Positions 19,956 to 22,790 of a stretch of 61,869 bases of DNA are shown here, piece by piece. The DNA lies in NCBI GenBank assembly GCA_018670435.1, contig JABHRC010000014.1, positions 1 through 61,869 of the forward strand. The letters are read 5' to 3'. Position 1 is the first letter of the stretch, and the number at the start of each line of letters is the position of its first letter. Position numbers and translations under genes: made by a program. The DNA comes from Gammaproteobacteria bacterium. Its GTDB lineage: Bacteria > Pseudomonadota > Gammaproteobacteria > GCA-002705445 > GCA-002716945. The notes under the pieces are model-generated. The model was not told the DNA's origin. It worked only from the letters and a program-made list of their open reading frames with translations, and made no database searches.

Positions 19956-22790
19956 CTAACTTGGTTGGTTTATGTTTCCAGATAAAGAATTTTTATTTGC
20001 TGTTAAAGTTACAGCTTCACCAACATTCACCGAAACAAGTTTAGATACACCAGGTTCTCTCATAGTAACACCCGATAAAATATCAGCTAATTCCATTGTG
20101 GATTTATTGTGTGTTATAAATATAAATTGGACTGTCTGTGACATTTCTCTGACTACATTACAAAACCTTGCATTGTTTGCTTCATCTAATGGTGCATCAA
20201 CTTCATCTAGTAAACAAAATGGGGCTGGGTTAATCTTAAATATTGAAAATACAAAGGCTATCCCTACTCCAGCTTTTTCACCACCTGAAAGTAAATTGAT
20301 ATTCTTGATTAACTTACCAGGTGGTCTGGCCATTATTGATACTCCAGTATTTAGAAGGTCGTTATCAGTCATCTCCAAGTAAGCTTTACCGCCACCAAAT
20401 ATTTTTACAAAAAAACTATTTAAATTATTATTAATCTGATCAAATATCTCTTTGAACTTAGCCTTAGTTTCATTATCTATAGTTTTGATTGCATTCTCAA
20501 GAGTATCAACAGACTTTGATAAATCATCATACTGGTTATCTAGATAAATTTTTCTTTCCTTTTGATCTTTTAACTCATCAATTGCAGCTAAGTTAATAGC
20601 ACCTAAGTTATTAATCTTAGACTGCATAGAACTTATATCTTTCTCAATAGATTCTATACTACCAGATGATGATACTTTGTTTATAGCAATTTCAATTTCA
20701 GAAAGTGGTATGTCAGAATTTTCTTTTAATGAATTACGTTGTGCAGTCTTCTCACTAAGTGATATTTTCATGATCTCTAGTTTTTCTCTGAGATCAGAAA
20801 TAATAATATTTATATCATTTTTATCAGACTCAAAACCTAATATTTTATTATCAAGCAAAGTTAAAGAATCTCTTATATCTGCTAAACTTGCTTCTTGGTT
20901 TTTTTTATCATTAAGTAGTTTTTTTAATAAGTTCTGCATGTCAGAAGAAGGTTTGGTTGGTGTTGAGTCACTAGATAATAATAATAGTTTTCGATCTTCA
21001 AGATCAGTTTTCTCTCGACTAATCCTACTAAGATTCTCATGTGCAGCTGCTTTTTCAGATAATAATGAAGATATTGCCACATTTAAATCGTTTTGAGATT
21101 TCTGAAGTTCTTCAGATTTCCAAATAACTTTATCAATTATTTGCTTAAACTCTATTCTTTCTTTTTCTAGCTTAATTTTCTTTTCATCATTAGTACGTAT
21201 TTTAAGCCGAAGGTCTTCCAGTAATTTTTTAGCTTTGTTAATAGAGGTTTGATAATCATTAATTTTAGACTTAATATCCTTAATTTCATCGTCTTGAGAC
21301 CTAATTAATATTTTGATTTTTTTTATTAAGTTTTTAAAGTTATCTGAGATATATCTGATTGATAATGGCAATGCTTTAAAAAACTTATCATCTATCTTGT
21401 TATTAAATTCTGATCTTTCTACATCGACTAGCATTGAAGATATTTTTTCTTGGATATCATTGGCAGTACTCATAATTATATTCTTATCTGAAAGATTTTT
21501 CTCATCATCTATTGTATATGACTCTAATATTCTTAATCTTTTAGTTAAAAGCTCAATAGACTTCTCAAAAGCCTTGATCTTTGTTTTCTCTATCTCTTGC
21601 TTATTTTTTGTATCAGATTGAGCAGAAATAAATTCATTGAAAGATGTTTGCCAATTTTGTAAGGCAAAATTAGAAGCTGACTTCTCCTTGTTCAAAAGAG
21701 TTAGCTCACGAGTTATATTGTCTAGAGTTATACGCTTTTCATTAACATTATTTTCTAAATTTTTTGCCCTTAAATCTTCTTTTTCTTGTTCAATTTTTAG
21801 ATTTGTTATATTCAATATAACTTCATCTATAGATTTTTGTCTTGAAAACTCTGATTCCTGTGAATGCTCAATATCTTTTTCACATTTAGCGATTTCACTT
21901 CCTATATGATAAAAGTCAGCCTGGCTAGTATTGAATATGTCTTGTTTAGCACCTCTTTGTATTCTTGTCTCTTCAATTAATTTATCTTTGTTAGTTAGAA
22001 GTGATTTTTGTTTTTCATGTTCAATATTAGACTTACCAATATTTTTATCTAATTCAATAATTTCAGAATTATAGTTATTCCATTTCAAGCTTAATAAGTT
22101 TAACTTTAAATCTCTTTCTGAATTCTTTAAATTTTTATAATCATTGGCTGCTTTTGCTTGTCTTTCGAGTTTGTTTAGTTGAGACGATATTTCTTTCATT
22201 ACATCATTTAATCTATTTAGATTGTCTTTAGTGTGCTTTAGTCTAAGTTCTGTTTCTCGTCTTTTTTCTTTATACTTACTTATACCTGCAGCTTCTTCAA
22301 GATAAGTTCGAAGTTCTTCTGGTTTAGCTTCAACAAGTCTAGATATCATTCCTTGCTCTATAATTGCATAACTTCGTGGACCCAATCCTGTCCCTAAAAA
22401 AACTTCTCTTATGTCTTTTCTCCTACATTTTGTATTATTTAAAAAATAGTTAGATGATCCATCTCTTGAGACTTCCCTGCGTATTACAATTTCACTAAAT
22501 CTAGCAAACTTAGCATCCAAAGTATTATTTTCATTATCAAAATATAATTCTATAAATGCTTTGCTAACCTCAGGTCTTGACGATGATCCGGAAAATATAA
22601 CATCATCCATTGACTCTCCACGAAGATTTCTAGCCGATGATTCACCCATCACCCACCTTATTGCATCAATGATATTTGATTTTCCACAACCATTCGGACC
22701 AATTATCCCTGTTAAGTTGCTTGGAAAGGATAGAACTGTCGGGTCTACAAATGTTTTAAAACCAGCTAATTTAATTTTTGATAGACGCAT
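19956..22790 (-). CDS. smc: SMC chromosome segregation ATPase, shortened (944 aa), no recognisable hinge domain
   Basis: Walker [10 protein letters not shown]-loop IIEQG, signature LSGGE, Walker B/D-loop [14 protein letters not shown] switch, long coiled coils. Confidence 0.93.

Follow-up and report, generated by a model that had tools for sequence, protein, structure and literature searches.

A 944-amino-acid (aa) Smc protein that lacks the hinge domain is encoded on contig JABHRC010000014.1 of the gammaproteobacterial assembly GCA_018670435.1. The stretch analyzed, hereafter the window, comprises 61,869 nucleotides (nt; contig positions 1-61,869), and smc coordinates are given in window numbering; the genome carrying it is a draft of 0.97 Mb in 41 contigs, 84% complete, with a guanine-plus-cytosine (GC) content of ~30%. 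The protein is almost certainly a real and conserved Smc ortholog without a hinge, and it very likely acts as a condensin with ScpA and ScpB (ScpAB). Taken together, the evidence makes it probable that a streamlined marine gammaproteobacterial order (~1 Mb, ~30% GC) has this protein as its one functional Smc, in an Smc-ScpAB condensin whose ring is closed by hairpin tips. The gene is orthologous, under selection and the only Smc of its lineage, yet it fails one defining feature of its family, the hinge.

Identity of the protein and absence of the hinge

The smc open reading frame (ORF) lies on the minus strand, starts with ATG, ends with TAG and is uninterrupted (Table 1). An earlier reading of the window from its letters alone (the sequence-only reading), which gave no strand, had reported a single 944-aa frame with every head motif, and translation and the motif positions bear it out. 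The bipartite ATP-binding cassette (ABC) head is complete, with the Walker A, Q-loop, signature, Walker B/D-loop and H-loop motifs all located, and the heads align with the Bacillus subtilis Smc head structures 5xg3 and 3zgx (E ~1e-115). A Pfam SMC_N match spans aa 3-916, and the score of 850.8 bits against TIGR02168 (SMC_prok_B) passes the curated Smc equivalog cut-off of 567.35 bits. The closest relatives outside the family are gammaproteobacterial Smcs of 1158-1190 aa with 39-48% identity, and trees nest the 944-aa protein inside the gammaproteobacterial Smcs. Its gene neighborhood, with smc ahead of ligA and beside queF, is conserved as well.

What is missing is the hinge. The Pfam SMC_hinge profile (PF06470) gives no match to the protein even at E<=1, none anywhere in its own genome and none in 24 other genomes of the family. 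In 16 other families of the class, by comparison, Smcs are 1160-1237 aa long, and the hinge was detected in 14 of the 16. The TIGR02168 alignment falls into two pieces, aa 2-454 matching profile positions 1-451 and ~aa 486-922 matching positions 741-1180, leaving ~290 consensus positions represented by 31 residues (aa 455-485). Between anchors at aa 410 and 530, a MAFFT alignment counts 121 aa here as compared to 349-408 aa in canonical gammaproteobacterial Smcs; since ~170-200 of the missing residues correspond to the globular hinge, ~35-45 residues were lost from each arm strand. Profile-profile comparison (hhalign) of the family's central region with the hinge region of canonical relatives returned a probability of 0.06%. 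Glycine is absent from aa 298-651, a stretch extending beyond the glycine-free central segment singled out by the sequence-only reading (aa 423-493), and cysteine is absent from aa 304-858, with no CxxC motif. The further proposals of that reading, namely that the hinge, together with hinge-proximal parts of both arms, had been deleted and replaced by a small helical linker, agree with the residue counts between the anchors and, for the linker, with the helical hairpin predicted in two AlphaFold2 models. Two candidates for the center were rejected: a divergent hinge hidden in aa 420-500 is excluded by the Pfam scan, hhalign, both AlphaFold2 models and Foldseek, and a zinc hook is excluded by an arm without cysteines.

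The order was sampled through 37 species genomes, all ~1 Mb, which make up one family of six genera. Each genome from which a complete smc was recovered encodes one colinear Smc of 926-956 aa with 52-87% identity to the 944-aa protein, the exceptions being a few contig-end fragments or genes split in draft assemblies. The deletion is common to all complete smc genes of the order and is therefore not strain-specific. In protein databases, the same protein at 941-944 aa is found on over 100 independent contigs of marine origin (ENA, JGI, Tara, NCBI), annotated as 'chromosome segregation protein' or 'AAA family ATPase' in Gammaproteobacteria metagenome-assembled genomes (MAGs). No second Smc was found in the own genome, and no second full-length smc or other condensin in its relatives. 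The ATPase motifs are invariant across the six genera, and nonsynonymous divergence (dN) amounts to 0.02-0.07 for the heads, with 0.1-0.48 for the arms and apex helices; constraint was judged by comparing dN with dN, as synonymous divergence (dS) is saturated (above 1) and dN/dS ratios are rough only. An assembly or gene-calling artifact, by which a collapsed repeat or chimeric contig would have removed the hinge, is refuted for practical purposes. While the source genome is a draft of 41 contigs, the reading frame is uninterrupted and the identical architecture occurs both on the independent database contigs and in the order's species genomes, some of them assembled into 3 to 6 contigs.

The partners of a canonical Smc are also present. 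An adjacent scpA-scpB pair is found in the own genome (contig 38, positions 74777-75921; G000:C38) and in 23 of 24 other family genomes searched, and ParB was found in all 17 high-quality genomes of the order, to which this count was restricted. None of the 37 order genomes has MukB (PF04310) or a member of the MksE/JetB family DUF4194 (PF13835). With neither MukB nor MksE and no second Smc, the hinge-less Smc is left as the only condensin ATPase. As a separate observation, ScpB frames in the family measure 174-200 aa as compared to 210-290 aa for the majority of the class's other families (own scpB, G000:C38:75445-75921); judging from these lengths, a C-terminal tail of ScpB seems to have been lost in the same lineage as the Smc hinge.

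Predicted structure of the arm and its apex

Structure predictions were AlphaFold2 monomers and are read as secondary structure. One model covers the full-length single chain, computed from a 20-sequence alignment, and the other the fragment aa 385-540, with a predicted local distance difference test score (pLDDT) of 84. In the full-length model the arms reach a pLDDT of 80-92 and the head halves only 30-50 despite being the most highly conserved regions, which is probably an effect of the shallow alignment and single-chain setting rather than disorder. Helices are placed at aa 170-304, 318-424, 429-460, 469-496, 499-603 and 618-690, and the paired breaks fall at 305-317 and 604-617. The fragment model has a helix at 386-424, a break at 425-430, a helix at 431-460, a loop at 461-468 and a single long helix at 469-539. 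Both models are purely helical at the center, where the apex loop 461-468 is the only non-helical stretch. The best Protein Data Bank (PDB) matches of the fragment model in Foldseek were antiparallel two-helix hairpins, none significant and none globular, among them a Pyrococcus Smc arm segment (5xg2, template modeling (TM) score 0.62), Rad50 arms, YscO and the p85 iSH2 domain; the full-length model returned generic SMC matches only. As modeled, the arm is a long antiparallel intramolecular coiled coil with conserved interruptions, and it turns back through an 8-residue loop as a helical hairpin.

The sequence-only reading had also drawn attention to a Pro/Ser break near aa 610. The break is present (aa 606-616), opposite the N-strand break at aa 305-317, but it is not new. 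Canonical relatives are interrupted at the matching alignment position and the break is therefore ancestral, an ordinary Smc arm interruption that lies outside the novelty of the protein.

The apex itself differs from the rest of the arm in hydrophobicity. In a scan of 28-aa windows across the arm (family mean, 573 windows), helix 469-496 is the most hydrophobic (0.47 versus a mean of 0.28, z = 4.0, rank 1/573). The a/d heptad positions of apex helix 2 fall at residues 474, 478, 481, 485, 488, 492 and 495, and additional hydrophobic residues occupy e-type and other positions (471, 482, 489, 494 and 496). Residues D456, R459, K486, I492, K493 and S498 are invariant over the six genera. The apex loop is the least conserved part, with a dN of 0.5-1.3 versus 0.1-0.45 in the flanking helices. 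A special constraint on the apex was considered and rejected on dN, given the saturated dS: the apex helices behave as arm and the loop is unconstrained. A widened hydrophobic stripe would be expected if the hairpin packs against something else. From the sequence pattern we infer that the most economical packing partner would be the hairpin of a second Smc, giving a small four-helix bundle.

Table 1. Features of the smc gene, its product and the adjoining genes, in window coordinates
Feature	Position	Strand	Basis
smc, hinge-less Smc, 944 aa + stop	19956..22790	-	ORF list, translation, TIGR02168 850.8 bits; sole Smc in genome
N-terminal head half, aa 1-165	22296..22790	-	motif positions; B. subtilis Smc head structures
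Walker A GPNGCGKS, aa 31-38	22677-22700	-	motif located
Q-loop IIEQG, aa 143-147	22350-22364	-	motif located
N-terminal arm strand, aa 166-460	21411..22295	-	AlphaFold2, arm pLDDT 80-92; colinear with TIGR02168 up to 451
N-strand break, aa 305-317	21840-21878	-	AlphaFold2
N-strand break, aa 425-430	21501-21518	-	AlphaFold2
Apex helix 1, aa 431-460, with invariant D456 and R459 at its end	21411..21500	-	AlphaFold2; invariant columns, six genera
31 residues, aa 455-485, replacing consensus 452-740 (hinge and proximal coiled coil)	21336..21428	-	TIGR02168 boundaries; MAFFT with canonical Smcs
Apex loop EFNNKIDD, aa 461-468, predicted turn of the arm at the expected hinge site	21387..21410	-	AlphaFold2; dN
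Apex helix 2, aa 469-498, hydrophobic and basic; candidate closure/dimerization surface	21297..21386	-	hydrophobicity windows; invariant columns
C-terminal arm strand, aa 469-765	20496..21386	-	AlphaFold2
Ancestral C-strand break, aa 604-617	20940-20981	-	AlphaFold2; same break in canonical relatives
C-terminal head half, aa 766-925	20016..20495	-	motif positions; Smc head structures
Signature LSGGE, aa 834-838	20277-20291	-	motif located
Walker B/D-loop, aa 860-869	20184-20213	-	motif located
H-loop ITH, aa 892-894	20109-20117	-	motif located
ligA, NAD-dependent DNA ligase, 665 aa	17954..19951	-	NCBIfam NF005932 805.8 bits
queF, preQ1 synthase, divergent from smc over a 65-bp spacer	22856..23239	+	TIGR03139 158 bits

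Ring closure and competing explanations

In the mechanism proposed here, an ancestral in-frame deletion would have removed the globular hinge along with the adjoining residues of each coiled-coil strand. Each Smc would then consist of an ABC head and an arm of ~295 residues per strand (an estimate with an error of ~10 residues either way), ending in a bare hairpin of helix 431-460, loop 461-468 and helix 469-498. With heads, ScpA-binding regions, ScpA, ScpB and the ParB loader all retained, the complex is expected to load at parS and to translocate or loop-extrude. Two hairpin tips would pack through their hydrophobic apex helices into a small helical bundle, closing the Smc-kleisin ring. The 'bypass gate' function of the hinge toroid for single strands would be lost, and the complex would rely on ParB-directed loading, with the conserved ParB as the likely loader, and on threading obstacles through its lumen.

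Work on engineered proteins bears directly on this scheme. The sequence-only reading took the hinge to be essential, which is too strong: engineered SMCs need a closed ring, not the hinge fold itself (PMC5344682, PMC12647877). B. subtilis Smc is inactivated by loss of hinge dimerization, and a Wadjet JetC core without the whole elbow-to-hinge segment extrudes DNA only with covalently closed arms and does not bypass obstacles (PMC12647877). The hinge toroid has been proposed as a gate for obstacles tethered by single strands, and combining B. subtilis hinge-channel mutations with ΔparB gives synthetic sickness (PMC12647877). A natural hinge-less Smc is plausible in light of these results, which predict that it needs some form of closure and has lost gate-mediated bypass.

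As to the form of closure, we lean toward tip-to-tip joining of the hairpins. In its favor, the hydrophobic maximum of the arm lies at the apex both in the 944-aa lineage and in a second, 906-aa hinge-less lineage described below. Four points weigh against the proposed mechanism as a whole. The ParB search of the own genome, which is 84% complete, gave no match; the apex helices are conserved no better than the arm (column identity 0.4-0.66; dN 0.11-0.46 versus 0.09-0.48); the hydrophobic stripe may instead serve as an intramolecular cap or in arm-arm co-alignment; and ~295 residues per strand falls within the 270-320 range that is non-functional for engineered B. subtilis Smc.

The main rival of tip closure is an open-topped condensin, in which the tips stay apart, the Smc hairpins are joined only through their ATP-engaged heads, by the ScpA bridge and ScpB dimer and perhaps by arm co-alignment, and no closed lumen exists. 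The apex contains no recognizable dimerization domain, CxxC motif or cysteine, its helices are conserved like ordinary arm around a freely varying loop, and the fragment model resembles a plain two-helix hairpin, all of which speaks for such a complex. We nevertheless regard it as unlikely, since B. subtilis Smc is non-functional once hinge dimerization is lost, covalent closure of the arms is required for extrusion by the hinge-less Wadjet core (PMC12647877), and an apex helix that is the most hydrophobic arm stretch in both hinge-less lineages is hard to explain for a solvent-exposed tip. If the tips are indeed not joined, ring-based models of SMC action need revision, and an open-topped complex as the sole condensin of a free-living order would mean that a closed Smc lumen is not a universal requirement for chromosomal SMC function.

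It is considerably less probable that closure depends on a partner, the hydrophobic and basic apex binding another protein, the membrane or DNA, by which the two arms would be linked or anchored. Helix 469-498 is amphipathic, the family mean net charge is ~+1 to +2 per 14-residue window over aa 463-504, and K486 and K493 are invariant, as such a surface might require; however, no conserved extra gene adjoins smc, whose neighbors are ligA and queF, the second lineage has only zipA, ligA, scpA and scpB beside it, and genomes of ~1 Mb leave little room for new subunits. Least credible of the functional alternatives is a slowly decaying smc or an ATPase repurposed for another role, such as repair in the manner of RecN or Rad50. 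A hinge usually ranks among the defining domains of an Smc, and these reduced genomes have lost other conserved genes such as zipA, but the frames are intact in all six genera wherever complete, the ATPase motifs are invariant, head dN is low, and ScpA, ScpB and ParB are co-retained. The Rad50 and SbcC models score only 19-42 bits on the 944-aa Smc (cut-offs 478-1087) and the RecN model TIGR00634 scores 20 bits (cut-off 407.85), and the long arms are unlike the short coiled coil of RecN.

Relatives, precedents and gene neighborhood

The hinge-less Smc is a new natural form of a known machine, not a new kind, with precedents in an actinobacterial clade and in engineered cores. With the canonical Smc of Smc-ScpAB (B. 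subtilis type; TIGR02168; 5XG3, 3ZGX, 5H68) it shares descent, head motifs, arm breaks and the partners ScpA, ScpB and ParB, and it is colinear with the consensus on both sides of the deletion. It differs in having no hinge toroid (PF06470), in strands shorter by the residues lost with it, ~295 residues as compared to 330 in B. subtilis Smc, and in an apex predicted to consist of an 8-residue loop between helices. Channel-less Acetobacter and Wadjet-II/III proteins have lengthened arms, whereas the arms here are not lengthened. Rad50/SbcC and RecN share the ABC head and antiparallel coiled coil and carry a small apex dimerization element instead of a globular hinge; the 944-aa Smc has no CxxC hook as in Rad50/SbcC, and its partners are ScpAB rather than Mre11/SbcD. 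By analogy, it may be seen as the natural counterpart of engineered SMC motors that work without the hinge fold when their arms are joined. Unlike those constructs, the natural protein has neither zinc hook nor disulfide, and almost all of its arm is retained, the part distal to the mid-arm break included.

No report of a natural hinge-less Smc in Gammaproteobacteria was found in the literature, and the one published precedent is a 'hinge-less' SMC clade from abundant marine Actinobacteria, described from sequence and AlphaFold only (Environ Microbiome 2025; PMC12153180). Both groups are oceanic, with intact heads, a coiled coil, no hinge and no CXXC. The actinobacterial clade belongs to another phylum, however, and the nearest relatives of the 944-aa Smc are gammaproteobacterial MAG Smcs. 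As the protein nests among gammaproteobacterial Smcs, the hinge was probably lost here independently. In the present order the gene is the sole copy and ScpAB and ParB are kept; PMC12153180 carries no report on ScpAB or ParB partners.

An exhaustive search of representative sequences recovered a second hinge-less lineage. Nearly all of the best 150 matches are canonical (1142-1220 aa), apart from the family's own Smcs, three short-armed ones in which the hinge persists (990-1071 aa) and P0234, a 906-aa representative of a cluster of 151 sequences. P0234 is colinear with the 944-aa Smc at 42% identity and has no SMC_hinge match. It lies outside this order and did not turn up in a 400-genome sample of the class. 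Its apex sequence, with a DGFYG turn, is unrelated. Its loci (L059-L061) read queF | smc-zipA-ligA-scpA-scpB, sharing the queF | smc-ligA neighborhood; unlike in the 944-aa lineage, zipA is kept and scpA-scpB stand in the same operon, which is a direct link of a hinge-less Smc with kleisin and KITE partners. On L059 (10001-16480) smc, zipA, ligA, scpA and scpB form a tightly packed co-directional array, and zipA is short (155 aa). On one contig of this lineage the gene calls merge scpA and scpB into one 427-aa fusion, which may be real or an artifact of frameshift or gene calling.

The trees differ on how the two hinge-less lineages are related. A full-length LG+G4 tree joins them with a Shimodaira-Hasegawa-like approximate likelihood ratio (SH-aLRT) support of 98, with compositional bias flagged, and a heads-only LG+C20 tree places each beside a different canonical Smc (96/74 and 100/94). 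A single clade of the two was not rejected by the approximately unbiased (AU) test (p = 0.149). The three short-armed clusters, P0204, P0224 and P0257, are gammaproteobacterial and retain the hinge (PF06470 at ~aa 436-540); both strands of the arm carry corresponding deletions immediately after the mid-arm break. They are natural 'mini-Smc' proteins of a shorter arm-length class.

An order whose only chromosome-organizing Smc is hinge-less provides a natural test of what the hinge is for. The roles under discussion are plain dimerization, a DNA entry gate and a gate that passes transcription complexes tethered by a single strand (Nat Commun 2025). This lineage kept the heads, nearly full-length arms, ScpA, ScpB and ParB and discarded only the hinge, a state that has persisted over six genera, and it asks whether slow-growing bacteria with small genomes can do without obstacle bypass through the hinge. 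Its apex offers a candidate minimal natural closure element for grafting onto the Smc of B. subtilis or Caulobacter. Viewed alongside the actinobacterial clade and the 906-aa lineage, this lineage points to recurrent hinge loss in streamlined plankton.

In the window, ligA starts 4 nt past the smc stop, and the two genes are therefore probably co-transcribed. The usual gammaproteobacterial order is smc-zipA-ligA, and here no zipA stands between smc and ligA (junction 19951-19956). The ZipA_C domain was undetectable in all 37 genomes of the order, and its bacteria may divide without a recognizable ZipA. Elsewhere in the window, RNase E (13896-15758, plus strand) is 620 aa long and matches positions 1-626 of the 1068-position E. 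coli-type model. Judged by this match, the C-terminal degradosome scaffold appears to be missing, which would fit protein shortening in a streamlined genome.

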